This document shows, in pieces, positions 2,942 to 61,868 of a DNA stretch of 64,000 nucleotides. The notes under the pieces were generated by a model, which saw only the letters and a list, made by a program, of their open reading frames with translations, ran no database searches and had not been told where the DNA came from. The position numbers and the translations under genes are program-made. Source of the DNA: an uncultured Saprospiraceae bacterium (GTDB taxonomy: Bacteria; Bacteroidota; Bacteroidia; Chitinophagales; Saprospiraceae); assembly GCA_964548175.1 (NCBI GenBank), contig CAZJQS010000015.1, forward strand, positions 920-64,919. The letters are read 5' to 3'. Each line of letters starts with the position of its first letter. Position 1 is the first letter of the stretch.

Positions 2942-2974
2942 GTGTTTTGGGGGTTGTATGTTACCACGGGGCGG

Positions 2975-4273: not shown

Positions 4274-4335
4274 TTTCTACCCCATTAAAATTAAATAACA
4301 ACCCCAGCCGCCCCCCTAACCTGGGACGCAAGTCC

Positions 4336-4620: not shown

Positions 4621-4625
4621 GGGCG

Positions 4626-5891: not shown

Positions 5892-5945
5892 AAATGGAAA
5901 ATGGCATATAGGAGTTGTTTAAAGTTAAGGATGATTTTTATTTTT

Positions 5946-27341: not shown

Positions 27342-28385
27342 ATGAGATATACAAAAATAATAACGACTATAGGAATACTCTCTGTCTTATGGGGGTGTCA
27401 ACAGGAGGATCAGCCCTCCGCTCCGAATATATCCGACATCGCCGTCGAAGTACCTCTTCGAAGGTTTGAGAAAGCCCTTTTTTCTGCTGATACTACTCGG
27501 CTGCCGCAGGAGTTGGAAAAGATCCAGGCTGAATACCCTGAGTTCTCTAACATTTTTTTCGGTCAGATACTCGGCGCAAACGATCCTGCCGTCCAAAACA
27601 CCATGAGCCCGGCGGAATACATCAAGGGTTTCGTTACTTTCCCGGCTGTCCGGGAGTTGTACGATACCTGTATGCATCTGTATGACGATTTTTCAGCAGA
27701 AAAAGCTTCTTTTGAAAAGGCTTTCCAGTACTTGAAATTTTATTTTCCAGACTTGCCTACTCCTGACCTGACTACCTTCATCTCAGAGTATTCAGTAGGA
27801 GTCTTCATTTACAAAGACAATTCGTTGGCCGTAGGTCTGGATTTTTTCCTGGGCAGCGATTACCCCTATGCCCGGCTCAACCCCAATAATCCGGCCTTCT
27901 CCGCTTATCTGACCCGCACCTTTAACCGCGATCACCTGGTGAGTAAAACCATAAGGGTCCTGGTAGAGGACATGACAGGCGCTCCCCAGGGCGGCAAAAT
28001 GCTTGACGTCATGATCCACCGGGGCAAACAGATGTACCTGCTCGACCAAATGCTGCCCCATGTAGCGGATACCGCTGTTTTTGAATTTTCAAGCCCCCAA
28101 CTGTCCTGGCTGCAAGATAATGAAATGGATATCTGGGCGTTCTTCCTGTCCGAAGATCTGCTCTATTCCACCGACATGCAAAAATACCGCAAATACGTTG
28201 ATTACAGCCCGAACGCTCCGGGAATGCCCATCGAAGCTCCCGGCCGAACCGCCAACTGGATGGGCTATCAGATTGTTAAGTCTTATATGAGAAATGTACG
28301 AAGCGCAACACTGAAAGACCTCGTCGATTTGAAAGACGCACAGATGATCATGGATAAGTCAAGATATAAACCAAAGAGAAGGTGA
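27342..28385 (+). CDS. gldB: Gliding motility lipoprotein GldB-like
   Basis: Lipobox LWGC. N-terminal pattern I..V.LRRFEKALFS and a size of 347 aa fit my recollection of GldB. Not verified. Confidence 0.55.
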   Translation: MRYTKIITTIGILSVLWGCQQEDQPSAPNISDIAVEVPLRRFEKALFSADTTRLPQELEKIQAEYPEFSNIFFGQILGANDPAVQNTMSPAEYIKGFVTFPAVRELYDTCMHLYDDFSAEKASFEKAFQYLKFYFPDLPTPDLTTFISEYSVGVFIYKDNSLAVGLDFFLGSDYPYARLNPNNPAFSAYLTRTFNRDHLVSKTIRVLVEDMTGAPQGGKMLDVMIHRGKQMYLLDQMLPHVADTAVFEFSSPQLSWLQDNEMDIWAFFLSEDLLYSTDMQKYRKYVDYSPNAPGMPIEAPGRTANWMGYQIVKSYMRNVRSATLKDLVDLKDAQMIMDKSRYKPKRR

Positions 28386-36084: not shown

Positions 36085-36138
36085 AAATATACTTAAATTA
36101 TCCACCGCCCGCGGGCGATGGATAATTTAAGTATATTT
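36085..36138. repeat. 54-bp near-perfect palindrome upstream of the PorU-like gene
   Basis: aaatatacttaaattatcca (36085-36104) and tggataatttaagtatattt (36119-36138) are perfect reverse complements. The spacer ccgcccgcgggcga contains the palindrome cgcccgcgggcg. Confidence 0.9.
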
Positions 36139-36176
36139 TGCTCCCTGGCATATCATTTTCCCAAAACGAACATAGA

Positions 36177-39100: not shown

Positions 39101-41207
39101 CAGAGAATTGGACATCGCCGAGATCCGATGGGAAGAAAGATCTTTTATTTATCTGGAAAATGAACCCGAAGGCTGGAATCAGTCGGAACACGATCAGCTG
39201 ATCAGCGGAAGCCTGGATGGGATCGTCAAAGCCGAGGCGGAAAAAACATTGGAATATGGAAACGGCCAGAAAAGCATTAGAGGGGAGGCCATGTCGTTTG
39301 ATGTAAACAGATTGAATGATTACTCGAAATATACTGAAGATGGTGTTAGAAGATACTGGGGAGGGCATTTTGAGGGGCCAACAGATGGAATTTCAGATAA
39401 GCATATTTTTGTAGGGGTGTTCGATCCGCTTACGGGCGAGATCTGGAGGAATATGGGTGCGGGAAGGTTCGGCTCAATCAGGCGGAATAATTACACGGGT
39501 TTTACTTTTAGAATAAACACGCCTGAGCAGCGAAAAAATATCGTAGACTTAATTAATGACTCTATTCCTTCAGGTCATTACGTTTTATTGCTCACTTCCC
39601 AGGAATACGGCGTCAGCTTATTAGAAAAAGAATGGGCGGCTGATTCCCTGATTTACGGCACGAATTTATTCGAAACCTTAGAAAAACAGGGCGCTTTGGA
39701 AATTCGGAAAATGCTGGATTTCGACCAAAGCATGCCTTACGCCTTTGCCTTTATAAAGGATGTGGAGCCGCTGGATGAAGCCCTGGGCTATGACATCTAC
39801 AGGGAGGTCTCCGTAGAATTCAACCTCCCCTTCAGGAAAACCTACGGCTGCATTACTTCCCCCCTCATCGGCCCGGCCCGCGACTGGCGTAGCGTCCGCT
39901 GGCAACCTCTGCTGCAAACCGACCAGAGCGACGAACTAAGCTTTTCCCTTATCAGATGGAACCCTTCCCGCACCCGGCCGGATACCATAGCCCTGCCGGC
40001 GCAGGTGAAGGGGTTCGATATCTCCGGCACCGATGCCCGCCAACATCCCTACCTGCAGTTGCGCTACTGCGCGCGCGACCAGGAAAATCGCAGTCTGACC
40101 CAGCTCGGCTACTGGCGCGTCTTCTTTTCCGGCGAGCCGGACCTGGTTCTGACCCGGGGAGCAAACTACAATTTTGAATCCGATACCTTGCAACAGGGCC
40201 GGCTACTGAAACTCTCGGCTGCCCTCATGAATTTCAATGCCGAGGTCAAAGACAGCATAGACCTGCGCATCAGCATACAGTCTACCAATAACGAACGTAC
40301 TACCATTAACCGGCGACTTGCACCCATGGATAAAGACAGCGAGCAAGCCCTCTCCTTTGAAGTCGACACCAAACCCCTCAACGGGGATCAGGAAATAGCA
40401 GTGGAGGTCAATCCGGCCCGGAATATCATAGAAACACAATACGCCAACAATCTGGGCGTACTGCCGTTTTTTGTACAGGCCGACAATGAAAACCCGCTGC
40501 TGGACGTCACCTTCGATGGTCGACGTATCCTGAACGGCGAGCTGGTCTCCGCCCGTCCATTGATCGGCATTTCTTTGAAAGACGAAAATAAATTTCTGGA
40601 AATCCGGGATACGTCTTCCTTCCAGTTATGGGTCGATTATCCGGACGGTGTGACGCGGGAGTTTTATTTCAGCGATCCGCAAATCCAGTTTTTCCCTGCT
40701 GAAGATGCCCGCAAAAATAAAGCGCGCGTAGAATTCCGGCCACAGCTGGAACTGGATGGCGAATATACTCTCCGCGTCAGCGCTACGGATGCCAGCGGCA
40801 ACCAGGCGGGCGCGTCGAATTACGCAGTGCAATTCAAAGTGATCACGGAAAGCCAGTTGTCGAATATTCTGCCGTATCCCAATCCATTTACCACTTCCTG
40901 CCAATTCATTTACACCCTCACTGGTGATCGCGAGCCGGCTGATTTTAAGATCCAGATCATGACCGTCTCCGGCCGCATTGTCCGGGAAATTACTCAGATG
41001 GAGTTTGGCTCGATGAAGGTAGGCACACACCGGTCGGATTTCGTCTGGGACGGCACCGATGAATTCGGCGACCCACTGGCGAATGGGGTATACCTCTACC
41101 GGGTAATGGCCAAAGATGCAGAAGGAAAGGAGATCAAGCAGTACGAGCAGCGTGAGGTGGATGGATATTTTAAGAATGAGTTTGGGAAGATCGTGATACT
41201 GCGATAA
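36177..41207 (+). CDS. C25 (gingipain-family) cysteine peptidase with multiple Ig-like domains and a T9SS/FlgD-Ig-type C-terminal domain; PorU-like
   Basis: Start chosen at ATG 36177 (MKKLVLLSLFSFSLSLAVTAQ signal). His/Cys dyad context: SFLGHGGVTG and LIFSLGCQTGNLF. C-terminus: PYPNPFTTSCQFIYTL...KIQIMTVSGRIVREI...WDGTDEFGDPLANGVYLYRVMAKD. Confidence 0.7.
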   Translation: MKKLVLLSLFSFSLSLAVTAQMQVGNELLFGNEWIDYEQTYLKIKITEDGWRRLTGAQMASAGIDLSEVSGRNLTLFWMGRPIPIDRSTSGAFSPNDYIAFFGQKNQGGLDRHLFESEEDMLNPYYSMFSDTSAYFLSWKVSGRTSPDYEEVENDLADLPEKEQWYWAVERRVLGEQARYKREGPDNLLAYSAFDRGEGFVSNENDYHKIEFSSTSPVPSANTQARIRLHLVTRLSGSTMIISFNGKEFSREQVAGNNHFLKKEMDIPLSDLGASSELEIIREGWTPDGKNNRNQYAIAFAELSYPRAFDAQGAGYFAFDLAAGPRRYLEVDNFDTQGGMIWVYDLTNQKKIPTVTEGSKVRFVTEASNQDTRFVLVNEQSAFQPAEHFSTTNFVDLTTSRADFLIITHRDLFKGPNGRNLIQEYADYRSSADGGNHVTQVITVDQLYDQFAYGVYNHSLGLHNFGQYAAQEWNALKYILLLGHGYTYDINRNPERELGQNHFVPTYGVPGSDNILFAPKGRVTPSFAVGRLAVDSPEEIAVYLNKLRTYEADLRNARGIAERLWRKRVLHIGGGSEPQDQRTFRITLQNMEKFITTEGFGGFVTAVSKDNNELVQFTTSDQVKDAMSEGVAIKSFLGHGGVTGTDFGLDNPLAFNNKGKFPLIFSLGCQTGNLFDQQKSLSESFILTELGGIGYFASPGYAFAFSLEDLASEFYRLLSTKEHYTAGIGELMRLMRNKFEQGYNQWTRELAIQMSYHGDPAAKINLYATPDHIIDPGSAKIEPRGLTAAQDSFSFSFDVVNLGFNQVDTFAILLTRIFPDQEKEEVRDTISAGIGRTSLSYRFAVGEENVEGEHRIEVTLDIDNDIREEPAERGEQNNELIEGTGQKGFRFFIQQNAVLPVSPAPFAIVSEGGIKLVASSNTLSQEERSFLFQLDTTAAFNSSRLSSFQLQSRGGVLEWKPNVSWENGKVYYWRIRELDIAEIRWEERSFIYLENEPEGWNQSEHDQLISGSLDGIVKAEAEKTLEYGNGQKSIRGEAMSFDVNRLNDYSKYTEDGVRRYWGGHFEGPTDGISDKHIFVGVFDPLTGEIWRNMGAGRFGSIRRNNYTGFTFRINTPEQRKNIVDLINDSIPSGHYVLLLTSQEYGVSLLEKEWAADSLIYGTNLFETLEKQGALEIRKMLDFDQSMPYAFAFIKDVEPLDEALGYDIYREVSVEFNLPFRKTYGCITSPLIGPARDWRSVRWQPLLQTDQSDELSFSLIRWNPSRTRPDTIALPAQVKGFDISGTDARQHPYLQLRYCARDQENRSLTQLGYWRVFFSGEPDLVLTRGANYNFESDTLQQGRLLKLSAALMNFNAEVKDSIDLRISIQSTNNERTTINRRLAPMDKDSEQALSFEVDTKPLNGDQEIAVEVNPARNIIETQYANNLGVLPFFVQADNENPLLDVTFDGRRILNGELVSARPLIGISLKDENKFLEIRDTSSFQLWVDYPDGVTREFYFSDPQIQFFPAEDARKNKARVEFRPQLELDGEYTLRVSATDASGNQAGASNYAVQFKVITESQLSNILPYPNPFTTSCQFIYTLTGDREPADFKIQIMTVSGRIVREITQMEFGSMKVGTHRSDFVWDGTDEFGDPLANGVYLYRVMAKDAEGKEIKQYEQREVDGYFKNEFGKIVILR

Positions 41208-41954: not shown

Positions 41955-44039
41955 TTATTGTCCGAATTCCTCAGCGCCATGGGTCAGTTTCTTCAGGCGT
42001 TTAAGGAAGACGATCAGGAGCAAGCCGAATAATGCTGTGAAAATAAAAATGGAGATGAACGTCCACAATTCCTGATTATCCTGTACTTCGAAGACTTCGA
42101 TCTCACCCTCCCAGCCGGTATGGCCATTCTCGGAAGCAGTTTTTTCCAGAGAAAGGATAGCGGTAAGAGGTTCTTCGGGAGAATGTTCATAACCATCCAG
42201 GTAATTTTTTAGCAGCGCCCTGTTCTCTTCGGTGATAGCGATGAGGGGCAACAGGTCTTTACCATTCTGAGTTATTTGTATCGCATCATTCACCAGGGCG
42301 ATCTCCCCTACTATTTCAAAGTTACCTTGCTGTGGGAAGCTATCCCGGGTGAGTGACACTTGCCCTTTGATCTGGGAAGGCTGTATGGTCAGGTCAAAAG
42401 CATCGACGATCTCGGCGGGTTCTGCAGTCATTTCGATCTTAACGGTCTCCAGCTGGGAAGCTTCGCCGACGACGCCCGCCACCTTGTTGCCCAGTCCGGT
42501 AGCTGCAAAGTAGACTCCCATCATGATCGACACATATTTCACAGGTGCTACTTTTGTGATGAAGGACAAGGCGACCGGAGAGGCGCAAAGTTCGCCTATG
42601 GTATGGAAAAGATAAGCCAGGATCAACAATATCAGAGCGGCCTGGTCACCATATTGTTCGATGTCCACGGAGGCTTTGGCCATCCACAAAAAGCCGACGC
42701 CCATAATGATGGTCCCTACCGCCATTTTAAATAAGGAAGAAGCTTCTTTCCCCAGCTTAGCCCACCAAATCCAGAAGGCGCCTACCAAGGTTCCGAAAAT
42801 GATAATGAACATCGCATTTACAGACTGAAAGACAGCTGTTGGGATTTCGTAAGGGTCAGACAGGACATTTCCCCTCAGGTAAAAATACAGTCCTATGATA
42901 AAGGCGCCGATGGGAAAATACACGTAGGCGGTATCTTTTTTCCTTATCAGTTCCCAGATCCCTCGCAGCAGCAAAAAGCCGCCGGCGCCGTAAAAAAGGA
43001 GGTCCATAGTAGTCATGGACACTACGCGGTCAATTTTTTTTAGGGTATAGATATTCATCAATCCACCGGCTTGCTCAAAAGCCCCCCAGAATACGATCAC
43101 GATCAGAAAGGAGATCAACAGGACCACATACTGATCCTTTTCGATCTTATTGATGTCTTGATAGATCATCATCAGCAGGCCTATGGTCACGGCCAGGAAT
43201 ATACTGAGCAGGCTATAGCCTATGCGATTGTACCCTTCTGTGTTGAAATAAAAGATCAGGATCCCGGCGACACCCAGTGCGATGGTAATGGCCAATTGCA
43301 TCGGGGAGCGAAGCAGAGCGCTAAAGAGCGCGCCCATAGAAGTATTTTCCCCGGCCCCTTCTCCGCTGGCCTTCATGATCGTTTTCGGAGATTCGCCGAC
43401 GCCTCTGAGGTATTTCTGCCCCAGCATAAAAACGATCTGTCCGACAGCCATACCTATGCCGGCCAGGCCAAAGCCGTAATGCCAGCCATATTCTTTGGCA
43501 ACAACACCTACGATGATGGCGGAAAGAAAGGCGCCGATGTTGATCCCGATATAAAAAATAGTGAATCCCTGATCTCTTCGCAGGTCTCCTTTTTTATACA
43601 GGCCACCGACCATGGTAGAAATATTAGGTTTTAAGCATCCAACGCCCGCAATAATTAACGCCAGCCCGGTAAAGAATGCCCAGGTAGCATCGACTGCTAA
43701 TACCGTATGCCCCGCCACCAGTATCAATCCGCCTATCATCACTGCCTTTTTCTGCCCCACGTATTTATCAGCTAAAATACCACCTGGAATGGAGGCTACA
43801 TAAACCAGCATGGTGTACCACCCGTAAAGCGACAAGGCCGCTGCCTCATCCCATCCCAAACCAGGATTAGCATCGGTTACTCTGGTAATCATATACAAGG
43901 TCAATATTGCACGCATACCGTAGTAGGAGAATCGCTCCCAAAGTTCTGTAAAGAACAATACATACAATCCTACCGGGTGGCCGAACAGCTGAGGTTGGTT
44001 ATCGAAGTCGTAGGTAATCGCCTTGGCTTTGTCTGTCAT
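41955..44039 (-). CDS. Proton-dependent oligopeptide transporter (POT/PTR2) with a C-terminal extra domain
   Basis: PTR2 signature ELWERFSYYGMRAILTLYM. 694 aa. A hydrophilic segment of ~150 aa (ETVKIEMTAEP...EVFEVQDNQE) is followed by one extra TM segment. Confidence 0.85.
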   Translation of the reverse strand: MTDKAKAITYDFDNQPQLFGHPVGLYVLFFTELWERFSYYGMRAILTLYMITRVTDANPGLGWDEAAALSLYGWYTMLVYVASIPGGILADKYVGQKKAVMIGGLILVAGHTVLAVDATWAFFTGLALIIAGVGCLKPNISTMVGGLYKKGDLRRDQGFTIFYIGINIGAFLSAIIVGVVAKEYGWHYGFGLAGIGMAVGQIVFMLGQKYLRGVGESPKTIMKASGEGAGENTSMGALFSALLRSPMQLAITIALGVAGILIFYFNTEGYNRIGYSLLSIFLAVTIGLLMMIYQDINKIEKDQYVVLLISFLIVIVFWGAFEQAGGLMNIYTLKKIDRVVSMTTMDLLFYGAGGFLLLRGIWELIRKKDTAYVYFPIGAFIIGLYFYLRGNVLSDPYEIPTAVFQSVNAMFIIIFGTLVGAFWIWWAKLGKEASSLFKMAVGTIIMGVGFLWMAKASVDIEQYGDQAALILLILAYLFHTIGELCASPVALSFITKVAPVKYVSIMMGVYFAATGLGNKVAGVVGEASQLETVKIEMTAEPAEIVDAFDLTIQPSQIKGQVSLTRDSFPQQGNFEIVGEIALVNDAIQITQNGKDLLPLIAITEENRALLKNYLDGYEHSPEEPLTAILSLEKTASENGHTGWEGEIEVFEVQDNQELWTFISIFIFTALFGLLLIVFLKRLKKLTHGAEEFGQ

Positions 44040-48335: not shown

Positions 48336-48502
48336 AAAACAAGATTTTTGAAAATAAACAATAAACTTCTCCCAGTTCTGAGCCTTGAGGCTTCAGCAAC
48401 CTGCACTTCGTCTCCAAAATGTTTGAAAAAATTCAGGAAAGTGCTCTCCTGACTGAGAGAAAGCCTTGAAGTTTTGTAGTAATCAATTCCCAATACTCAA
48501 AT

Positions 48503-48551
48503 AAAAGGCAAGAACGTTTCCACTCAATAGATGGAAACGTTCTTGCCTTTT
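48503..48551. terminator. Strong intrinsic terminator downstream of the PorV-like gene
   Basis: aaaaggcaagaacgtttcca-ctcaataga-tggaaacgttcttgcctttt is a perfect 20-bp stem including A/T tracts. Confidence 0.85.
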
Positions 48552-48610
48552 AAGTAAAACAAAAATAGGAATATTACTAATAAAACTCAAGAGCTAAGAC
48601 CAGGAAAATA

Positions 48611-49654
48611 TTAAATACTGATTCTCAGCGAAATATTATGCGTTCCGTTCCAAAGCCGGGAATGCCGGTAGGCATAATCGATCCCCAGACGATTGCCTTT
48701 GTTTTCCTTATTCAGCGGAAGCTCAAAACTTGCCCCAGCAGAAAGCCCGGTGTAGATAGAAGCTTCAACTTCAGGCACGTTCCCTAAATCCACTTTGTAG
48801 CCGGCGCGGATCATAAAAAGTTCATTCAGGGAGTACTCTGCTCCTGCGCCCAACTGGTCCTGGGAAAAAGAATTGGAGGTAAAATTGCCCACCATCGTAA
48901 ACCTATGCCGCTCACCGAACAAAAAGTCATAGGACATTCCGATATTCAACATAGACGGCAATTCAAAGGTAGCCGACCTTTGATTGAGCGTCAGCTCATA
49001 TCCTCCGCCATTAGGCGCAGGCGAAGGCGTCGCGAGCCCTTCCCCGGTAAACTTCATGGGGGAGCCGACATTACGCAGTGAAATACCGAACTTGAAATTG
49101 TCATTCTCTCCAGTTACATATTGCACGCCTGCATCCAGGGCAAAACCAAAGGCCGATACGTCAGCAATCGATTCGGAGATCAGCCGCAGCCCCAGCCCCA
49201 CAGAGATCTTATTCTCAAAAGTGTAGGCATAGCCTAGCGCGAGGTGGAAAAAGCTGGGCGAAAAGGTCGTTCCGGTACCCTCCGGCTGATCAACGGTAGT
49301 CACTTCAATCTCCCCAAAATCGAGGGCCATCAGGGTAAGCCCGAAGGCCCCTCCTTCTCCCGCCCTGGTCACAATGCCCAGCGAATTCATGGTAATGCCC
49401 GTTCCTTGCAGATAATTGGCGTAGCCGGCCATGACCTCCAGGCTATTGATCCGGCCAAGCCCGGCTACATTCAAACGCATGGCCTCCACCCCGCGAATGT
49501 TGGCTGTCGTCATCGTATGCAACCCGGCACTCCTGGCCCAGGGATTCATCAGCAGTTCATAAGCCCCGGCTTCTCCCTGTCGGTCTGGATTGCCGGCCCA
49601 GACAGCAGTAGTCGCCACACAACATAAGAGGAGCAGAAAGTAAATTTTGTTCAT
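48611..49654 (-). CDS. PorV/PorQ-family (FadL-like) outer-membrane beta-barrel
   Basis: Start chosen at ATG 49654 (MNKIYFLLLLCCVATTAVWA signal). N-terminal pattern GEAGAYELLMNPWARSAGLHTMTTANIRGVEAMRLNVAGLG fits the PorV/PorQ family pattern as I recall it. Beta-strand-rich, ending ISLRISI. Confidence 0.65.
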   Translation of the reverse strand: MNKIYFLLLLCCVATTAVWAGNPDRQGEAGAYELLMNPWARSAGLHTMTTANIRGVEAMRLNVAGLGRINSLEVMAGYANYLQGTGITMNSLGIVTRAGEGGAFGLTLMALDFGEIEVTTVDQPEGTGTTFSPSFFHLALGYAYTFENKISVGLGLRLISESIADVSAFGFALDAGVQYVTGENDNFKFGISLRNVGSPMKFTGEGLATPSPAPNGGGYELTLNQRSATFELPSMLNIGMSYDFLFGERHRFTMVGNFTSNSFSQDQLGAGAEYSLNELFMIRAGYKVDLGNVPEVEASIYTGLSAGASFELPLNKENKGNRLGIDYAYRHSRLWNGTHNISLRISI

Positions 49655-49674
49655 AAAAAATTTATTTGCCAGGT

Positions 49675-49702
49675 CCGGCCAACCTGCCAGCAGGCTGGCC
49701 GG
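49675..49702 (-). promoter_or_regulatory. GC-rich intercistronic stem-loop between the giant gene and the PorV-like gene
   Basis: ccggccaacctg-ccag-caggctggccgg is a 12-bp stem with one mismatch, inside the 58-nt gap (49655-49712). Confidence 0.5.
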
Positions 49703-49712
49703 GCCCAGGTGT

Positions 49713-52700
49713 TTATAATCCAGAGGGGTCAAATTTCCTATTGATCCCAAACCATTTTATCGTGCGTTCTCCCAATTCACCGGCATCAATGTGCACTAAA
49801 TAAATACCGCTGGCAATAGGTATGCCTCTGTTGTTCCTCAGGTCCCATTCCAAGGCAGGACTGATCTGCTGCCGCTTAATGGCCCTGTTGACCCCGTCAG
49901 GCACCGCACCGACCTCATCACGTCGATACTGCCGGATGAACTTGCCGTCCAGAGAGAAAATAGTCACAATACACTGTGCCGGCAGATTTGTTATTTTAAC
50001 CGTCGTCGTAAATTGCGATTGCTCGTAATCAGAGAAGCCATAATACGGGTTAGGTACTACCTTGATCTGATCCAGGGCGCTTTCTACCTCTATCTCCGAC
50101 AATGGCTCCGGCTCCTTGTTGTCAATTGTAAACTGATAAGCCGGATAGCCGCCGTATTCCCCAGTACCGACAGCCACCTTGAAGGGGTTGTCTACTCTCA
50201 ACTTTACGACCACCTCCTCCGGTATGAGGCCTTCCTCGTAGGATAACAATCCCGTTCCAGGCGCCGTCATGATGAAACCCGCCCAGGTGATGTCCTCTAC
50301 GCTCCTTACCTTCGCCAGGCTGGGCCTGTTACTGTCAAAGTTCTCTCTGAACTCCTGACACTCATCATAAGGTGTATTAGTAACATAAACCATGTGCTGG
50401 CCACCCGCCAGGAAGTTGAACAAGGTTACAAAGTTGCCGGCAGGGAGGAACAATTGCGAAGAAGGATTGAACATCATATCCCCTCCTGTTGGCGGCCCCT
50501 GGAAGCCTTCCGCTGCCAGAGACCCGTTGTAAACGGAGTTTTCAGAGAAGAAAATGTTCAGCCGCTGCCCGGTCTCTACATCGATGGCATAGCCGGGGAA
50601 CCAGCCCATGCCGTTACCGGGATCTTCCGTATCCACATCCGGCAAGCCGTCCCCGTTCTGGTCAAAGCGGGTTACATTAGGATCGGACCGGAGATCAAAA
50701 TGGCGTCGCCCCCCTTCCGCCTGGAAGCCATTTTGATTGTAGTATCGGTTGGCGCCCTCTACAATGACGCATCGGCTCCACAATTCCTTGTTGGGCGTAA
50801 ATACGATATCCACGTTATTCAACATGGACAGTGATGTTCTTCCCCGAACGAGGTTATTCCCGCTCAGGTCGCTCCAGGCAGGCGTGATGTATTGCAGGTC
50901 CCGGTTCTGGTCTTCCCGGCGACGCCAGTTGGCCATATAATAAGGTAGAAAATAGCCGGGGCCTATATTCGTGTAAGCCTGTTCGGGATCAATGTCCGCA
51001 TCTTCTCCGCCGGGGGAGTTATCCACGTAATCAAAGACGAGATCCCCGAAGCTGGTCGTTCCCGCTGCAAAGTCATCCGGTATGCCGGTCAACCATTGAA
51101 TGGGTTCTTCAGTAGCGTATTCTTCTTCATAGCCGATCACGCCGTTGCCGTCTATCCGGGTAGTTCCCACCTCAGGGGTTTGTACGATAGCCACGCTAAA
51201 GCCGTATTCTTTAATGATCTGTTCGTTGAGGCGATCGATCGTGCGTTCTGATAGGATGACCGGCTGGGCAGGATCGCTGAGGTTGCGTAACTCCCAGCGA
51301 ACGTTGTTGTCCAGTTGGTCATTATTCAAATCTTCATCAGCCAGGCGAAGTTCAAAAGAACCGTTCACGACTTCCAGCGGATTGAAAATAGTGATCTCTA
51401 TCGGTCCTTCTCCGCTTTTGTAAGTAATGACCCCATCAAAAGAACCCTCCATTATGGCCTGACGGGTTTCCTCTGAGATATCTAAAAAGCGGCCGCCTGC
51501 CCCAACGCCATCCAAGCGGGTAATGGCAGGGCCCTCACCATATTGAGCATTCAGGCGGCGATCGACGATGGGCCGTGGAATAGCTATGTAAAAGGGATTG
51601 TCCCCGTCTCCGATATTTCGCCGTCCTTCCAAATAGGGCCGCCGCTGCCCAATGACATCTTTAGGATCGAACGGCTCGTACTCGTTAAAGGCATAGGCAA
51701 TGGCTGTAAAGTAATATCGTTTGTGATTGACCAGCCGCCGGTCACCTGATGCGAACCGATCTTCTCTGATGCGAAACGTATGCCGAATACCTTCATTACG
51801 GCCTTCCACCTGAAGGAAAGGAGCATAAAACTCATCCCCTGTAGGATTATCCACCGTTTCCCAATTAAAAATTCGATCCATATTATTTTTTAGATCCGCC
51901 TGAAAGATTAACCTCGCTTTATCGGGATCATCCAGATCGGCCAGGGTAACATCCGGGCCCGAAAGCTGGTAAAACTTATATCCTTCAAAACGATAAAGCG
52001 TATCTTCTGCTCCGGCAGGGATCTGCAAGCCCCTTTGCGCATAAGCTTCGAAGGCATTGTTAGAAGTCAAGGTGTCATTAGTAAAAATAGCGATGATCTC
52101 CCGGTCCAGTTCAATAAAGTCCACATCCGGCGCATCAGGGCCGTCGGTAATCTCAAAGCAGTTATCAAACAAAGCCTGTGCAATGTCATCAGCTTCCTGC
52201 AACTTGCGAATACTCGGACAGGGGTAGTCCTGGTCAGCCACCCAGACTGCACCGATGATCAGCTCATTGACCGCGCCGGGATCCAGGCGGAAAGGGCCGG
52301 AAGCCTGAAGCGTGCGGCGATCACCAAAAGCCAGTCCTTCAGAACACATGGACCAGCCCCGGGGATCATCCGGTGTATCGGTAAAAGCATATTTGATCGG
52401 CTCTCCGTCCTGATAGGCATCGTCACCAAAAGTGAATGGACTGCCGTCTTTCCACGAGCCGGAGATATAGTTGTAAAATTCCTGAGCATTTTCGGGATCT
52501 GTGGTCCCGAATTCCGGAGAACCCACACCGCCGTTGTTATAGTAAGTAAAAGAAGACATGGGTAGCTCATTGCCGTTTTCATCCAACGGACCACGGAAAT
52601 AGTCAACCCCCAGAATAGGCACTTCTTCACAATAAGTATTTACGCCCAGGGGGCAGACGCAGCCGGTTTGCCCGTCAATGGCGTCTTCATTGTACACATA

Positions 52701-53723
52701 AGCCAGGCTGCGCGTGGTATCGCAACCGATGTAATCATCCGTATAACACCCCAGGTCGGGATCGACCCACATGGCAAAAAACATGGAGTCGATACTTTCC
52801 ACAGCCCTGTTGATCAGCTTATAGCGCTGGAAGGTCATGTCGTTGATCTCGTCATTAGTCGCGTAGGCAAATGCCTGGACCTGTATTTCCATTTGTATGG
52901 CGTCACCCATGGACTGGGCATGGATATTTCCGGCATCGTTGTAGATCCAGAAGATCATTTCATCGGGAAACTGTGGCTCGTCCAGGCAACCCCGGATCTC
53001 GATCACGGGAAAATCACCCAGATCCGGGTTGTAGTTGCCGTCGCCATCCTGATCCCAGAAGCCGGCCAATCCCTGAGTGGTATTGGGCAGATCGAACTGG
53101 TGGACTTCGAAGAAGAATTCATTACCTTTGGCCGGCCAGCCTTTGACGTCTTTTGGAATATCGTCAGGGTCGTAAGGAACCCCTTCCACGACACTTCTTT
53201 CATAATTTCGGATGTGCTGTTCGATGCTTTCGCCTTTGACCACAAAGAACTTGTCCCATTTGGCGCAGGACTCCTGGTCCGTCAACCCCGTCTCCGGGTT
53301 AAGCGGGCCGGGCCAGTAGTCGAAGGCGCCATTACTACGCCCGTAAGTTTGCGCAGCTAATTTCAGATTACCGGCAGGGTCAACACCTCCCAGCCAGACG
53401 GCTCCGGCAAATATTGAAGAGACTTCGGGAAGGCCCGGCGATACTTTGGGCACGACATAACGCCCGTCGGTGCCGTCCCACCAAACATCGCCTCCGGTGA
53501 GCAATCTGGCTCTCACATTGTTGATGGCCTGGTCGATCTGGGTAATGGCGTTATCGCAATTCTCTCTGAACGAAACGGTGTTTTTATCTACCGTCTTTCC
53601 CTCTTTCCTATGGATATTCGGATTGATATTTGCCGAAAGGCTCAGCGTTATCCCTAGCCCGATCATTGTCAATAGCCATTGTTTGAATTGGCGCATAGCT
53701 GAATATGATTTTTCTTTTTTCAT
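49713..53723 (-). CDS. Large secreted protein of unknown family with a T9SS-type / FlgD-Ig-like C-terminal domain
   Basis: Start chosen at ATG 53723 (MKKEKSYSAMRQFKQWLLTMIGLGITLSLSA signal), giving 1,336 aa. C-terminus: KVVPNPYYGFSDYEQ...VKITNLPAQCIVTIFSLDGKFIRQY...WDLRNNRGIPIASGIYLVHIDAGE. The body matches nothing I recognise. Confidence 0.7.
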   Translation of the reverse strand: MKKEKSYSAMRQFKQWLLTMIGLGITLSLSANINPNIHRKEGKTVDKNTVSFRENCDNAITQIDQAINNVRARLLTGGDVWWDGTDGRYVVPKVSPGLPEVSSIFAGAVWLGGVDPAGNLKLAAQTYGRSNGAFDYWPGPLNPETGLTDQESCAKWDKFFVVKGESIEQHIRNYERSVVEGVPYDPDDIPKDVKGWPAKGNEFFFEVHQFDLPNTTQGLAGFWDQDGDGNYNPDLGDFPVIEIRGCLDEPQFPDEMIFWIYNDAGNIHAQSMGDAIQMEIQVQAFAYATNDEINDMTFQRYKLINRAVESIDSMFFAMWVDPDLGCYTDDYIGCDTTRSLAYVYNEDAIDGQTGCVCPLGVNTYCEEVPILGVDYFRGPLDENGNELPMSSFTYYNNGGVGSPEFGTTDPENAQEFYNYISGSWKDGSPFTFGDDAYQDGEPIKYAFTDTPDDPRGWSMCSEGLAFGDRRTLQASGPFRLDPGAVNELIIGAVWVADQDYPCPSIRKLQEADDIAQALFDNCFEITDGPDAPDVDFIELDREIIAIFTNDTLTSNNAFEAYAQRGLQIPAGAEDTLYRFEGYKFYQLSGPDVTLADLDDPDKARLIFQADLKNNMDRIFNWETVDNPTGDEFYAPFLQVEGRNEGIRHTFRIREDRFASGDRRLVNHKRYYFTAIAYAFNEYEPFDPKDVIGQRRPYLEGRRNIGDGDNPFYIAIPRPIVDRRLNAQYGEGPAITRLDGVGAGGRFLDISEETRQAIMEGSFDGVITYKSGEGPIEITIFNPLEVVNGSFELRLADEDLNNDQLDNNVRWELRNLSDPAQPVILSERTIDRLNEQIIKEYGFSVAIVQTPEVGTTRIDGNGVIGYEEEYATEEPIQWLTGIPDDFAAGTTSFGDLVFDYVDNSPGGEDADIDPEQAYTNIGPGYFLPYYMANWRRREDQNRDLQYITPAWSDLSGNNLVRGRTSLSMLNNVDIVFTPNKELWSRCVIVEGANRYYNQNGFQAEGGRRHFDLRSDPNVTRFDQNGDGLPDVDTEDPGNGMGWFPGYAIDVETGQRLNIFFSENSVYNGSLAAEGFQGPPTGGDMMFNPSSQLFLPAGNFVTLFNFLAGGQHMVYVTNTPYDECQEFRENFDSNRPSLAKVRSVEDITWAGFIMTAPGTGLLSYEEGLIPEEVVVKLRVDNPFKVAVGTGEYGGYPAYQFTIDNKEPEPLSEIEVESALDQIKVVPNPYYGFSDYEQSQFTTTVKITNLPAQCIVTIFSLDGKFIRQYRRDEVGAVPDGVNRAIKRQQISPALEWDLRNNRGIPIASGIYLVHIDAGELGERTIKWFGINRKFDPSGL

Positions 53724-53727
53724 TTTT

Positions 53728-56700
53728 CTAAAAATCGAAAATAGCCCCCACAAAGATCCTTCTGGGCAGGCTAAAATTATTTGGGTTCAAAAGGGCCCAC
53801 TGGTAAGAATCCAGATAAGCCTGGACCTCTCTCCTTGAGTTCTCGATCGTCTGCAGTTTATCCAATCCATCGGATGACAACAAGAAGCCGTCATCTGTTG
53901 GTGAACCGGATGCGGAATAGACGTTGATCACATTCCGGCGATCCAGCACATTAGAGACCCTCAGGTAAACATTCATGAACATGCCCTGCGAAATCTGGAA
54001 CGATTTATCTATGCGGGCGTTGAGCGTAAAGGTCCAGGGCAATCTGGATCCGTTGATGGCGCCGGCGATGGTGGCCCCGCCCAGTTCAAGCGGAGTGATC
54101 GTTGCTGTGTAAGGACGTCCGGAAACGGCGATTCCCTGCAGATTGATACCAAGGTTAGCTAGCAACTGCTTACCGAAGATCAGGGGGCCTGCATTAGGAC
54201 CACGAGGAGCAAAACGGTAGTCCATGTTAAGGTTGAAGCGATGCCGCTCATCGAAATTCAACGGGAAGAGGGTCCTCAAATTCCCCCGGCTGGTCAGGCC
54301 GCGCTGGGAGTCGGCATTGGAGCCGGTACCGTCAGCAAACTGAAGGGTATAGTTCGCATTCAGCTGAACATTTCCGGTTCTCCTCAGGTCATACTCAAAT
54401 GAAAAGCCTTTAACCGTTCCGAAATCCAGATTATCATAAGTAGTATACTGATTAACAAAAGGGACAGGGAACACGGTACGCACCTGTATCATATCTCTCA
54501 TCTCTTTGTAATAGGCAGCCATTTTGATCGCTGAGGAAGAAGAAACTACCTGCCGGAAACCCACTTCGTAATCGATCGTACGCTCGGGTCTCAGATTCGG
54601 GTTGTTTTTTATTATGCCGGCCTCATCGGTAAAATAAAAATAGTCTCTGGCTGTAGCCAGGGTATTAGTGGGCGGCCGCTGCACCAATATGTCGTAATGC
54701 GCAAAGAAGTTGGCGTACTCAGAAATGGGGAAAGAGAAAGCCAGACGAGGCATGATATTGACCTGCGCTTCGTAATCCTCGAAGGAAACGCTGGGGTCAA
54801 AGTCCCTGGACTTGATGAAATTATTGTTCTGGGTGACTCTGGAATCTTTATATTTAGGAAAAACCAAGCCTCCGGAAATAATTTCAGTAGGGCTGTTTAC
54901 CGGCGTTCCGTCATTCCGGTACCATTGATCCCCATCCCGGTAAGCCAGCACGACCGGATCAGTGGAAATATTATCTTCATTTTCAAGATACACCTTGAAG
55001 TCATCTCCTATATTACCCGGGCGTTGCCCTTCAAAGTTTTCGTGAAATTCGGCGGCGCCCATGATCTCATACAGGGAGTAGATATCCCTGAGCACCTGTG
55101 TGTTGGCGTCGTAGCGGTCGATGCGAACGCCCAGGCGGAAGATGATGTCCCGGAAGGTAAATTTGTCCTGGATATAGGCTGCCTGATAGATCGGGCGGTT
55201 GGGTGCTACAGGAAAGGTTCTGACGCCTTCTTCGTCTTCGGCGGTAAAAAAGTCTTCAAAATCCCCGTTGAAAGGCATACCGAGATAATCGTAGCCAAAA
55301 TAATTGATGATGCGCTGATCGTTCAACTCTTTGGCGGAGAACATGCTCAGGCTCAGCTGATCCGGGGTCAAGCCATCTACATTGACGAACTCATCGAGGC
55401 CCTGCCCGGTTACTTTCCTGACTTCCCGGAAAAAGCGGCTGTCCGATTGCTCCTCTAGTTTAAGGCTTAATAAAGGTACGGAAGGAAATTCCGGAATGCC
55501 GGTAAAAAAGCCTACGGTGTCGGCCGCCTCATCGATTCCCAAAATGTGGATATTGGCCTGCTGCCGGGCAATGTTCCACAAGCTGCGCGGCGCCACCGTA
55601 TAGCCCCGGTTAATCCGCTCTTCGTACATGACGCCGAACTGAATGTTGTGCACGCCCTGATCAGAATTACCGGGCACCAGTTGGAAGCTGGCATTGGCAT
55701 TAAAAGTGATGATGTCGTTCTCGTTCCTGTTGTAATTATTGAACACGGTGCCTACGTTGGCATGGAAGTTCCAGGAGTTGTTATAAAGGCCGGAAATGGC
55801 CCCATTAGGTGCAAAAAAGGTTTCCAGGGCCAGCAAATTGCCGGTTAGGCCGCCGCCGCCCAGCAGATAGTTGCCGATATTGCCGTTCAGCCCTTCCTCA
55901 AAATTAAGGCCCATAGCCCTGTTGTAATTGGTTAATACCGGATTGACCGTACCAGGAGTATAGCCCCGGAGCACGCGCAGGTAGTCTGTGTGGACGGCTT
56001 CGGTAAGTTGCGTTTCTTCATTAAACTGTACAGCAAAGGTGGGTATCCATTCGACGTCAAACTGGCCAATGTAGCCGTAATCAAAAAAGCGATCCTGATG
56101 GTTGAAGTCCGAATTCTCCGATTCATTTTTTTCGTAGCCAAAACTCAGGTCATAGGAAGCATTCTGGATAAAACCTCCTGCTCCGGACAACCGATGGCGG
56201 AATCTAAAATTTCCCCTTATATTAGATCCGGTGACCAACGGATTATTGTGGCTGTTCATCAACGCCCATCCACGTGGAGTAAAGCGGTTTCGGGTATCCC
56301 GGTAGGCGCCTGTAAAAGAGACATCGATATCGTCAGTCAACAAGGCGTCCAGTTTTGCCGTAAGATCCAGTCGGCTGGAAGCCTCATTGGGAAAGGCATC
56401 CAGTTCGTCAACATCGCTATTTCTCAAAAAATCAGCCGCCACCAGGGGAATACCGCCGTTCCCCAGCAGCGGATTGGCTTCCAGCTCTGCCAGCACATCC
56501 TCTTTCACCCGGAACACAGGTACGGCCGGCGGGTCATCATCATACTGGTAAGTATACCTTCCGGCCAGACGATACCCCAAAATAGATCGGCCTTCCGCAT
56601 TTTTCAAAATAGGCCCGCTCAAGTTAAAGCCGATGAGGCTATTCTTGTAGGCATCCAGAAATTCAGAAGTTTCCAGCTCTACCCCTCCCGAGAATTTATT

Positions 56701-57375
56701 GGAAGGCCCTTTAGTCGTAATGGAGATGATCCCACCGGTGACGTCCCCGTAACGGGCTTCGATACCACCGGTGATCACCTGAAGCTGGTCGATTTCCGAT
56801 TCGGGGATCAGACTTCCCTGCACCCGGAGCCCGTCCACGTAATAGTCCGTAGCGTTGGATCTCGACCCCCGGATGGTGATGGCGTCCCCCTCATCGGTAG
56901 TCGCCAGGCCGGCGGCAGTGGAAGCCAGGGCATTGATATTCCGGGTAGGAAGATTGCGAATTTGCTCACTGGTCAGGGTTGTTCCTGAAGTGGTATTGTC
57001 CTGTTCCACCAGGGGCACGGCGTAATCTACGACCACCACTTCATCGAGAATGATCCCCCCACCGGTAGAAATAGTCAGGTCAAGTTTATTAGCTTTACCT
57101 GCCAGCACCTTCACATTGGTTACGCGCTTGGGTTGATATCCGGTGTAGGAAGCCTCCACGTCATAAGTTCCCGGATCGATATTGCTAAAGCTATAGTTGC
57201 CGAAGTCGTCGGTCTCCGTCACATTTCTCAGCACCTCATTCTGATAGAGGGCTACCGTTCCGAAAACAATGTTCTCGCCGGATTCTTCGTCAGTGACCTT
57301 ACCGGACAGAGAGGTTTGCCCATATGAAAGCATACCTACAGATAAGGCCAGCAATACGAGTAAAATTCTTAACAT
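53728..57375 (-). CDS. TonB-dependent-receptor-like outer-membrane protein with N-terminal carboxypeptidase-regulatory-like domain
   Basis: Signal peptide. CarboxypepD_reg pattern SLSGKVTDEESGENIVFGTVAL...TDDFGNYSFSNIDPGTYDVEAS. Plug motifs: NALASTAAGL, ITIRGSRSNATDYYVDGLRV, IEARYGDVTGGIISITTK. Terminal GAIFDF. 1,215 aa. Confidence 0.8.
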   Translation of the reverse strand: MLRILLVLLALSVGMLSYGQTSLSGKVTDEESGENIVFGTVALYQNEVLRNVTETDDFGNYSFSNIDPGTYDVEASYTGYQPKRVTNVKVLAGKANKLDLTISTGGGIILDEVVVVDYAVPLVEQDNTTSGTTLTSEQIRNLPTRNINALASTAAGLATTDEGDAITIRGSRSNATDYYVDGLRVQGSLIPESEIDQLQVITGGIEARYGDVTGGIISITTKGPSNKFSGGVELETSEFLDAYKNSLIGFNLSGPILKNAEGRSILGYRLAGRYTYQYDDDPPAVPVFRVKEDVLAELEANPLLGNGGIPLVAADFLRNSDVDELDAFPNEASSRLDLTAKLDALLTDDIDVSFTGAYRDTRNRFTPRGWALMNSHNNPLVTGSNIRGNFRFRHRLSGAGGFIQNASYDLSFGYEKNESENSDFNHQDRFFDYGYIGQFDVEWIPTFAVQFNEETQLTEAVHTDYLRVLRGYTPGTVNPVLTNYNRAMGLNFEEGLNGNIGNYLLGGGGLTGNLLALETFFAPNGAISGLYNNSWNFHANVGTVFNNYNRNENDIITFNANASFQLVPGNSDQGVHNIQFGVMYEERINRGYTVAPRSLWNIARQQANIHILGIDEAADTVGFFTGIPEFPSVPLLSLKLEEQSDSRFFREVRKVTGQGLDEFVNVDGLTPDQLSLSMFSAKELNDQRIINYFGYDYLGMPFNGDFEDFFTAEDEEGVRTFPVAPNRPIYQAAYIQDKFTFRDIIFRLGVRIDRYDANTQVLRDIYSLYEIMGAAEFHENFEGQRPGNIGDDFKVYLENEDNISTDPVVLAYRDGDQWYRNDGTPVNSPTEIISGGLVFPKYKDSRVTQNNNFIKSRDFDPSVSFEDYEAQVNIMPRLAFSFPISEYANFFAHYDILVQRPPTNTLATARDYFYFTDEAGIIKNNPNLRPERTIDYEVGFRQVVSSSSAIKMAAYYKEMRDMIQVRTVFPVPFVNQYTTYDNLDFGTVKGFSFEYDLRRTGNVQLNANYTLQFADGTGSNADSQRGLTSRGNLRTLFPLNFDERHRFNLNMDYRFAPRGPNAGPLIFGKQLLANLGINLQGIAVSGRPYTATITPLELGGATIAGAINGSRLPWTFTLNARIDKSFQISQGMFMNVYLRVSNVLDRRNVINVYSASGSPTDDGFLLSSDGLDKLQTIENSRREVQAYLDSYQWALLNPNNFSLPRRIFVGAIFDF

Positions 57376-57720
57376 ACTGGAATAATTTTCATTCTGGACA
57401 TCTTAACCACATGGTTTTGACGCAAAAAATATTTTGTAATGGACATCATCATTTACAGCCATCAGTGCGCCCGAGATTGAGCCGTACAATTTTAACAAAA
57501 ATAAAATTACTAACTAAGCGCCTCGTGATATACCTAAAAAAATTAAGCCCTTTGGCAGACAAAAAGGGGGTCTGCATCGTTCGACTCCTTTGTGGAACGA
57601 AAAACACCATCCACCTGCTCCCTGGACAAAGGTCATTTGGTACAGTAAATGACAAAGCCTGGGCCGGGTTAACATTTTCCGTTTATCTTTACCTCGTCAA
57701 AAAATGGAAATTGAAAACTC

Positions 57721-58410
57721 ATGAGATATACGATACTTTTTTTTTCGTTGTTACTCTACCTGAGTGTTTTCAGCTGTAAAAAAAACGATAAGGTCGTTGC
57801 AGAGGGGGAAAGTTTTTTTGCGGATTTGTTCGTGCGATATCTTGAAGAGGAGGGACAGCTAAAAGCGACAGCCACTTTTTTTAAGGGGGACAGCTTGCCT
57901 GCAGCCCGCAGTTGGCAGGCTTCTTCCGACGTTTTGTTCGACGGCCGTCCGATGAAAGAACGGAACATACAAGGCAGCCTGGTCAGGTACATCCTTGAAC
58001 TTAACAGCCGGCCTGACAAAAATAGCTTTCAGCTCGGCCTCAGGGATGAATCGGCTCCGCCACTTGAGCTTGCCGTTTCCCTTGACCCCATCCAGGCGTT
58101 TTCTATTCAGGGTGCTGCTTCCAGGAGCGAGGGCATCCATATTGATGTTCAAAATGGTCAATTGAACGAGCACCAAAGCCTTGTTTTTTTGTTTTCTGAC
58201 GCTGAGAACAAAGCCCATTCCGTTACTGTTCCCGGTCCTCATCAGGGGAACCTCTATTTTTTATCGCCTCAGCGCATTGCCGACTGGCCGGAAGGCAAGG
58301 GGCAGCTTTATTTGGTTAAAAAATCAAATCTGAAGCAAAAGGCAGGAGAATGGGAAGTTTTGCTACAAACAGAATACTATACCGATACGCAGGAGCTGAT
58401 AATGCGGTAA
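57721..58410 (+). CDS. Hypothetical lipoprotein
   Basis: Lipobox LSVFSC. 229 aa. No recognisable family. Confidence 0.5.
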   Translation: MRYTILFFSLLLYLSVFSCKKNDKVVAEGESFFADLFVRYLEEEGQLKATATFFKGDSLPAARSWQASSDVLFDGRPMKERNIQGSLVRYILELNSRPDKNSFQLGLRDESAPPLELAVSLDPIQAFSIQGAASRSEGIHIDVQNGQLNEHQSLVFLFSDAENKAHSVTVPGPHQGNLYFLSPQRIADWPEGKGQLYLVKKSNLKQKAGEWEVLLQTEYYTDTQELIMR

Positions 58411-61385: not shown

Positions 61386-61868
61386 TCACCGCTCTATGCC
61401 GGTATCTTCCAGTTTAAAGGCAATGCTTTTAATCCCAGGTATCGAGTCCTTTCGCATATACTGTTCAAGAACGATGGTGTGGGTGCCGGTTTGATTGAAA
61501 TAAGCATTTTCCTGGATAGGAATGGTAAGGGTACAATACTCTTTACTGCAATCCCCCTCCCATACGCCTGCATTATTGGCCATTTCCAGGGATAATTGTT
61601 CATCCAGCCGTTCTTGGGAAGGGAAAGTGGTATGTATAAAAGTATACAAATTTTGGTAGGCGTAGTCTGTCGTATGTTTCAACTCCAGATAGAGGTTGTA
61701 TATCTTTGTAGTATCTTCTATGTCGAAGGAAAATTCAAGAGAATCTGCGTAAGTCCAGCGTTCTCCTTCTATTTCATAGCTCTTCTGATACTCATATTTT
61801 TGTCCGCAGGAAAGGAGAGAAAAGAAAATCAGAAGAAAAAAAAACGGGCGAAGCCAGATCATATGCAT
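61386..61868 (-). CDS. gldH: Gliding motility lipoprotein GldH-like
   Basis: Lipobox LLSC. 160 aa. W..AD.L.F.F.I.D....YN+Y+.++H...Y.YQNLY...H...P and MRKDSIPGI patterns, as recalled for GldH. Confidence 0.65.
   Translation of the reverse strand: MHMIWLRPFFFLLIFFSLLSCGQKYEYQKSYEIEGERWTYADSLEFSFDIEDTTKIYNLYLELKHTTDYAYQNLYTFIHTTFPSQERLDEQLSLEMANNAGVWEGDCSKEYCTLTIPIQENAYFNQTGTHTIVLEQYMRKDSIPGIKSIAFKLEDTGIER

Follow-up and report, generated by a model that had tools for sequence, protein, structure and literature searches.

Selection and surface retention of non-cleaved type IX secretion system (T9SS) cargo are known so far only for PorZ with PorQ, PorU with PorV, and type-B cargo with barrels of the PorP/SprF type. 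In the attachment complex of P. gingivalis, the C-terminal domains (CTDs) of PorZ and PorU remain attached to PorQ and PorV, and a proposal has been made that cognate PorV-like barrels shield such domains from cleavage (PMC10202324). C-terminal extensions of the CTD are compatible with secretion, and the CTDs of PorU and PorZ bear extra C-terminal residues (PMC11285876). Here we describe a three-gene locus in a 64-kb stretch of DNA from an uncultured Saprospiraceae bacterium (the window; contig CAZJQS010000015.1 of assembly GCA_964548175.1, positions 920 to 64,919), where genes for a TonB-dependent transporter (TBDT), a giant secreted protein (the giant) and an outer-membrane barrel of the PorV/PorQ family (the barrel) follow one another on the minus strand. 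For this genome the analysis covers the window, and positions are given in its numbering unless another locus is named. Judged from their sequences, the giant and the barrel are probably a dedicated pair, in which a T9SS cargo with a 14-residue C-terminal tail has its own co-encoded barrel. That a cargo can have a cognate barrel of the PorV superfamily is already known; new are the combination of a CTD derived from type A, and its tail, with a barrel of a fourth subfamily, the constant presence of a plug-containing TBDT beside them, and the large unnamed cargo family. We found no paper describing the triad or the tail, and NCBIfam recognises the barrel at family level only and the giant not at all.

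The tail follows the last strand of the CTD, and has the consensus (T/V)(I/L)-K-W-F-G-(V/I)-x-R-x-(F/I/V)-D-(P/L)-x-(G/T)-(L/F/Y)-COOH. With identical sequences removed, it is present in 127 giants encoded directly before a barrel gene and absent in only 1, whereas all 7 orphan giants, which have neither neighbour, are devoid of it (Fisher's exact p = 6e-11, uncorrected for phylogeny). The giants of loci L075–L078 and L080, with no TBDT or barrel gene within 8 kb, end in an ordinary type-A CTD or in other sequence. The first-pass annotation of this DNA had suggested a module of a cargo, a PorV paralog and an uptake or anchoring barrel. Since the tail tracks the barrel gene, it lends independent support to the part of this idea that concerns a cargo with a dedicated PorV paralog; the link to the TBDT, on the other hand, comes down to adjacency and a shared strand. 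Docking through the tail is made plausible by the retained and extended CTDs that the literature describes for PorU and PorZ.

As for PorQ and PorV, the barrel is recognised by the PorV/PorQ family model NF033709 (139.7 bits, cut-off 90, residues 34–346), which bears out its initial placement in this family, and PorQ is its best equivalog model. Unlike PorQ and PorV themselves, it stays well under both equivalog cut-offs, with 80.6 bits for PorQ (NF033711, cut-off 220; N-terminal half only) and 58.7 bits for PorV (NF033710, cut-off 250). For PorV2 (NF052325) the score is 31.3 bits, with a cut-off of 325. Nine distant barrel orthologs score alike (123–147 bits for NF033709, 38–70 for the PorV model, and 49–74 for the PorQ model), and these profile scores therefore set the barrel apart from PorV, PorQ and PorV2, as a coherent branch of its own. 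The view that it is not a canonical PorV thus holds by curated cut-offs for the window protein and its orthologs, and can be extended to PorQ and PorV2. Its sole sequence match in the PDB is F. johnsoniae PorV (E = 2.6e-6). There is no porU gene beside the barrel gene, and the window has a single C25 peptidase, a PorU2, encoded on the opposite strand at a distance of 7.4 kb.

The CTD of the giant had been read as a type-A domain with the FlgD-Ig pattern, and this assignment is clear for its relatives, whereas the window giant itself matches weakly. Its best matches, both weak, are to the models for PorZ (E = 7.7e-5) and PorU (E = 0.0099), in each case within the CTD, and Pfam gives no match to Por_Secre_tail even at E = 10. 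Among eight distant full-length homologs, four match Por_Secre_tail (PF18962; best 3.3e-10). All eight distant triad giants match TIGR04183, below its cut-off (best 9.9e-6), and in seven of the eight it is the CTD that the PorZ model recognises (best 2e-8); several distant giants bear the NCBI name "T9SS type A sorting domain-containing protein". Furthermore, the last 113 residues of the window giant align with the CTD of the window PorU2 at 27% identity (pairwise E = 2e-11). From these comparisons, the CTD of the giant is most like the retained CTDs of PorZ and PorU. The giant was also considered as a PorZ ortholog, and this was rejected as the PorZ model is matched by the CTD alone; the body of the giant lacks a match to either the PorZ or the PorU model, or to any PDB chain. 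The window encodes SprA, GldB, GldH and PorU2, and a T9SS is thus present, with the giant very likely being one of its cargo proteins. Compared with PorZ–PorQ and PorU–PorV, where a T9SS surface protein is likewise combined with a PorV/PorQ-family barrel, the triad differs in the extra 14-residue tail of the cargo, and in that the cargo and barrel genes are adjacent and come after a TBDT gene.

In this gene order, the locus resembles SprB–SprF and other type-B cargo, where the cargo gene adjoins that of its own PorV-superfamily barrel. The window barrel also passes the Pfam model PorP_SprF (PF11751, 30.6 bits, cut-off 22.3), but remains under the corresponding TIGR03519 cut-off (26.8 bits, cut-off 90.55). 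The cargo proteins differ as well: the CTD of the giant is type-A derived, with no match to a type-B CTD (CHU_C/TIGR04131) in the window giant or its relatives in Pfam or NCBIfam, and unlike the gliding adhesins, the giant is highly conserved, with a compact body free of repeats.

The gene order TBDT, giant, barrel is kept well past close relatives, the point on which the module idea had been made to depend. In 67 genome loci, the three genes follow one another on the same strand in every case where the contig has sufficient length, with identities as low as 47%, and in 80 metagenome loci the triad persists to approximately 30–35% identity for all three proteins. A tblastn scan of 160 loci (from L003 onward) finds the TBDT in 140 and the barrel in 140, and most of the others are cut by contig ends. 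When genes were clustered in the 112 loci longer than 12 kb, the giant was found in 112, the barrel in 106 and the TBDT in 102, together with GreA (89), HIT (72), a 2-hydroxyacid dehydrogenase (44), the divergently encoded lipoprotein (42), RuvC (41) and carB (34). Median gaps across loci are about 28 nt between TBDT and giant, and about 68 nt between giant and barrel. The triad also occurs in a metagenome-assembled genome (MAG) labelled Bacteroidales. Among complete Saprospiraceae genomes, its carriers include OZ245751.1, OZ244935.1, Haliscomenobacter hydrossis DSM 1100 and Phaeodactylibacter luteus. The locus is core and vertically inherited, and not mobile; a mobile or horizontally acquired origin was rejected on an unremarkable base composition, and on flanks that consist of housekeeping genes kept across relatives.

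Nine loci (L003, L033, L034, L037, L063, L079, L083, L094 and L107) have the barrel gene followed downstream by one or two additional giant paralogs in tandem. These are 45–64% identical to the window giant where compared, and come with no extra TBDT or barrel genes; some of the last copies, namely those in L034, L079, L083 and L107, have lost the C-terminal tail. In L072 (9884–13537), a giant homolog with an altered C-terminus adjoins a Transposase_31 gene and a toxin–antitoxin pair, with no TBDT or barrel gene, and is probably a decaying copy.

The features of the window locus are as follows.

57721–58410, plus strand: divergently transcribed lipoprotein, 229 residues, lipobox LSVFSC
57376–57720, no strand: divergent intergenic region, presumed promoter and 5' leader (345 bp, read directly)
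53728–57375, minus strand: TonB-dependent transporter, 1,215 residues (Pfam domains)
49713–53723, minus strand: giant, the middle secreted protein, 1,336 residues, unnamed family (open reading frame, homologs and AlphaFold2 models)
49716–50081, minus strand: C-terminal ~120 residues of the giant, a type-A-derived T9SS CTD, FlgD-Ig-like with an insertion
49716–49757, minus strand: 14-residue C-terminal tail of the giant, an extension of its CTD, with the sequence KWFGINRKFDPSGL
49672–49705, no strand: GC-rich hairpin in the spacer between giant and barrel (inverted repeat)
48611–49654, minus strand: PorV/PorQ-family outer-membrane barrel, 347 residues (profile scores)
48502–48552, minus strand: terminator-like hairpin that closes the operon, before greA (21-bp perfect inverted repeat)

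The three packed minus-strand reading frames at 48611–57375 are present as first described, and so is the 58-nt gap with a GC hairpin before the ATG of the barrel gene (49654); the arms of this hairpin, 49672–49687 and 49690–49705, are 16 nt each and 88% complementary. Other details of the first-pass annotation needed adjustment. The 4-nt junction between TBDT and giant exists as such (TAG at 53730–53728, AAAA, ATG at 53723), but the figure varies with the start codon: in public gene calls the giant starts nine codons later, at a second ATG in the stretch 53696–53753 (1,327 residues, an identical protein, P0001), which gives a gap of 31 nt. The junction is tight with either start. For the barrel, the public call begins further upstream, at a TTG, and gives 379 residues with an overlap with the giant gene (48611–49750), and the start that gives 347 residues is likely the correct one, being favoured by orthologs and by the signal peptide. 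The perfect terminator hairpin is also there, although with arms of 21 bp at 48502–48552 and not of 20 bp at 48503–48551 (48502–48522 and 48532–48552, with a 9-nt loop, 59 nt past the stop codon of the barrel gene). A strong hairpin occurs in the operon only after the barrel gene. The hairpin was missed by the terminator scanner, because its loop of 9 nt is above the scanner limit of 8, and a scan for sigma-70 consensus promoters and terminators returned sites no commoner than in shuffled sequence. Finally, the 345-bp leader has the length and position given (57376–57720), but is a divergent intergenic region shared with the plus-strand lipoprotein gene. No Rfam family reaches its gathering threshold there, and relaxing the search to E ≤ 1 brings up nothing meaningful. 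A riboswitch in the leader, for instance a cobalamin riboswitch as might be expected by comparison with BtuB/BtuG, was ruled out, the window being without an Rfam match.

The lipoprotein at 57721–58410 (plus strand) recurs with unchanged position and orientation in 42 of the 112 long loci, mostly in close relatives, and matches no family. It is a possible accessory of the operon, with an uncertain association.

The TBDT has a signal peptide, an N-terminal CarboxypepD_reg extension (58.8 bits), a plug (PF07715, 40.4 bits, cut-off 23.9, residues 125–215) and a large C-terminal β-barrel that ends in a phenylalanine (OMP_b-brl_3, PF14905, 39.2 bits, cut-off 27); PF00593 is present in TBDT orthologs. 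The similarity to siderophore and heme receptor models is weak and partial only. The segment LDEVVVVDY, located after the N-terminal extension and before the plug, has an alternating hydrophobic pattern that is kept in about 18 orthologs. This segment presumably resembles the TonB-box consensus of Bacteroidota, which we take as making it a candidate TonB box. The earlier reading, a receptor with a carboxypeptidase-regulatory domain and a plug but no SusD-like partner, agrees with the Pfam domains and with the neighbours, namely the giant, the lipoprotein without family, and carB. Like the transporters of SusC/SusD and BtuB/BtuG, the TBDT thus combines an N-terminal extension, a TonB-box-like motif and a plug, and is co-encoded with a large putative surface partner. 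Unlike in those systems, the partner is not a lipoprotein (the N-terminus of the giant reads as a Sec-type signal with no lipobox) and has no similarity to SusD or BtuG; it would reach the surface by way of the T9SS and be anchored by a barrel. The TBDT also lacks the SusC/RagA signatures TIGR04056 and TIGR04057 in NCBIfam.

The body of the giant consists of a β-supersandwich region of ~700 residues at the N-terminus and a well-folded C-terminal half, followed by the CTD. That it stands outside characterised families, as proposed from the sequence at first sight, was confirmed by Pfam, PDB, Foldseek and profile searches: no Pfam domain is matched even at E = 10, and neither phmmer nor two profiles retrieve a sequence relative from the PDB. 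As a known enzyme or adhesin the giant was rejected, since Pfam and NCBIfam recognise nothing in it apart from the CTD, no PDB sequence relative was retrieved, and structural similarity is at fold level only. The family is nevertheless very large, although without a Pfam model, a name or a structure. A word-indexed search returned >2,298 homologs, of which the best 120 are 59–100% identical and full length except for one partial sequence, and an exhaustive search with residues 41–1240 against 50%-identity representatives retrieved 7,091 of them at E ≤ 1e-3, of which 1,962 reach E ≤ 1e-30. Named homologs are almost all from MAGs labelled Saprospiraceae, Lewinellaceae or Haliscomenobacteraceae, together with a protein from a Haliscomenobacter sp., a MAG of Phaeodactylibacter and the isolate Phaeodactylibacter luteus; more distant homologs are labelled Bacteroidales, Bacteroidia or Bacteroidota. 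Habitats of the family include marine, freshwater, sludge and soil metagenomes.

AlphaFold2 models of the giant are almost wholly β. With a shallow alignment, residues 41–1240 reach a predicted local distance difference test (pLDDT) score of 74.7, with ~90 in the C-terminal half and ~50–70 in the N-terminal half; with an alignment of 87 sequences (down to 33% identity), residues 41–740 reach pLDDT 90.0 and a predicted template modelling score (pTM) of 0.84. Foldseek matches of these models in the PDB are at fold level only (E ~1e-5, template modelling scores of 0.17–0.25 over ~270–480 columns). The targets are N-terminal β-supersandwich domains of enzymes from glycoside hydrolase (GH) families GH94, GH116, GH65, GH15, GH149 and GH161, and furthermore ExoMA2, dextran dextrinase, some polysaccharide lyases and the periplasmic domain of YidC (P1). 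Many glycan-active enzymes use the supersandwich fold as an accessory domain or for sugar binding. The catalytic (α/α)6 barrel that follows the supersandwich in enzymes of the GH94, GH65, GH15 and GH116 type is absent from the models of the giant. Invariant residues in the N-terminal 700 residues are mostly Asp, Asn, Gly, Pro and aromatics, and the alignment of this region lacks any invariant His, Ser or Cys, which argues against a classical hydrolase triad. The pattern of conservation suggests metal- or sugar-binding loops.

Based on these comparisons, we propose a mechanism where the giant would be exported by Sec and then by the T9SS translocon, for which SprA is encoded in the window. Its CTD would probably remain uncleaved and, together with the 14-residue tail, dock non-covalently on the co-encoded barrel, and the giant would thereby be held at the cell surface, as PorZ is by PorQ, PorU by PorV and SprB by SprF. 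The co-transcribed TBDT would be the working partner of the giant, which would take up a polymer, most likely a glycan, from the surroundings as its substrate and hand it over to the transporter. In this role the giant would be a T9SS-delivered counterpart of the SusD and surface glycan-binding lipoproteins of SusC-type transporters. Taken as a whole, a T9SS cargo docked on its own barrel and working with a TBDT is our best explanation of the locus, held tentatively and at slightly less than an even chance. The same caution applies to one of its parts, that the giant is stably anchored and not transiently shuttled, which is close to evenly balanced with a slight lean to the negative. A functional coupling of the giant to uptake by the TBDT, suggested by adjacency and by analogy to SusC/SusD, is possible, but we think it more doubtful.

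Several observations weigh against this proposal. The mechanism is a prediction from sequences and from models of the giant. The window giant falls below every CTD model threshold. Its fold likeness, seen in predicted models, is weak and concerns non-catalytic domains, and falls short of proof of glycan binding. The surroundings of the TBDT are devoid of a SusD-like gene, a regulator and a riboswitch, and also of any degradative enzyme. The tail statistic is phylogenetically non-independent and includes only seven orphans, and among the extra in-cluster giant paralogs the tail is present in 9 and absent in 8, where a few of the tail-less calls are TBDT reading frames or degenerate copies. The housekeeping genes GreA and HIT keep their places nearly as well as the triad does, so that gene order is in part a product of inheritance and, taken by itself, is a weak argument for function. 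The conservation of 60–70% across genera and the housekeeping setting also look more like those of a core envelope component than of a substrate-uptake system.

In the main alternative, the TBDT-like barrel would be a T9SS sorting accessory similar to PorF. The operon would then be a dedicated module for secretion and display, and its function would be the giant's own activity, as an enzyme, an adhesin or a coat. PorF (PG0534) of P. gingivalis is a TonB-dependent-receptor-like protein needed for T9SS function (PMC5445135), and a PorF-like receptor co-immunoprecipitates with PorV and SprA (PMC8564354). In C. hutchinsonii, PorV co-purifies with the TonB-dependent receptor CHU_1606, which is related to PorF and bears a plug (PMC8564354). 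As for PorF and CHU_1606, a TonB-dependent-receptor-like barrel is tied to a PorV-family protein in the triad, physically in the described cases (PMC5445135, PMC8564354) and genetically here. An accessory role would also agree with the lack of uptake-associated genes near the triad, and with the conservation of the locus in the manner of a core gene set. However, PorF is a protein of ~92 kDa reported to be plug-less (PMC8564354), whereas the TBDT of the triad has 1,215 residues with a clear plug and a TonB-box-like strand, a comparison that was made by literature description only. We consider a PorF-like accessory unlikely. The extra giant paralogs that come without extra TBDTs fit both the uptake and the PorF-like reading.

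If the barrel were instead a transient, cargo-specific shuttle, the CTD would subsequently be cut by PorU or PorU2, the giant would become covalently attached to a surface glycolipid or be released, and the tail would serve as a specificity tag that directs the cargo to this carrier and away from the general PorV. PorV is known to shuttle type-A CTD cargo (PMC5562754, PMC10994853), the CTD of the giant is derived from this type, and a PorU2-type C25 peptidase is encoded in the window 7.4 kb away, and directly upstream of the triad in one locus. Among the 160 scanned loci, however, this is the only one with PorU2 in the fetched flanks. The best resemblance of the giant's CTD is to the retained CTDs of PorZ and PorU, and the presence of one barrel gene per primary cargo copy (the extra paralogs have none), together with the conserved tail, suggests a lasting pair. 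A shuttle role for the barrel therefore appears quite improbable. That the triad is made up of three independent outer-membrane proteins, adjacent by inheritance in a slowly rearranging housekeeping region where GreA, HIT, RuvC and carB are also conserved round the locus in most relatives, is highly improbable given the very tight spacing with no terminator until after the third gene, the co-variation of the cargo tail with the barrel gene, the joint loss of both neighbours in orphan giants, and locus L073, where the triad is kept with entirely different flanking genes.

The window PorU2 (36138–41207, plus strand) is a C25 peptidase of 1,689 residues with a FlgD-Ig-type CTD, and matches the NCBIfam model "putative T9SS sortase PorU2" with 646 bits (cut-off 450). 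PorU2 and PorV2 (NF052324 and NF052325) are a putative second T9SS sorting pair, and the triad resembles this pair in that PorU2 is present in the window, with a CTD related to that of the giant. The resemblance ends there, since the barrel scores 31 bits with the PorV2 model, where 325 are needed, and PorU2 flanks the triad in 1 of 160 loci. On the same grounds, the barrel was rejected as the PorV2 partner of the window PorU2. There is no PorV2-like gene next to the window PorU2, where the neighbours are a rhomboid protease and a reading frame of 153 residues. In the single locus with PorU2 in the flanks (L071, 1–13997; giant ~33–35% identical), a PorU2-like C25 peptidase and two small reading frames are found directly upstream of the triad.

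Other T9SS and gliding genes of the window are sprA (13564–20943, plus strand; 2,459 residues, SprA_N E = 8.6e-170), gldB (27342–28385, plus strand) and gldH (61386–61868, minus strand). These core genes are scattered round the operon, and none is adjacent to it. A few kb upstream of sprA are two genes for SurA-like peptidyl-prolyl isomerases of the PPIC type (7129–8487 and 9366–11342, both minus strand); for the SprA translocon, a subunit with isomerase function has been reported. A gene for a POT-family di/tripeptide transporter is located a few kb downstream of the triad (41955–44039, minus strand), and likewise in nine other loci (L005–L008, L079, L083, L109, L124 and L131), a recurrence that may reflect inherited synteny or hint at peptide uptake, and is too weak to build on. 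A polysaccharide-synthesis cluster at the window's left end (396–7127) encodes an O-antigen ligase-like protein (Wzy_C), a flippase-like protein and a GT4 glycosyltransferase, and may be relevant to the anchoring of T9SS cargo on surface glycolipid.

In a wider sense, the locus provides a probable and very widespread natural pair of cargo and barrel with a simple candidate recognition element, the 14-residue tail. It is conceivable, although rather unlikely at present, that the triad represents a new class of outer-membrane nutrient-capture system, with a TBDT and, in place of a surface lipoprotein such as SusD, BtuG or RagB, a T9SS-exported substrate-binding partner permanently docked by an uncleaved CTD and tail, where the barrel would be a fourth functional branch beside PorV, PorQ and PorP/SprF, and the system a core feature of abundant environmental Bacteroidota. 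Should the link to the TBDT prove true, the T9SS would join lipoprotein export as a route to transporter-associated surface complexes in Bacteroidota.

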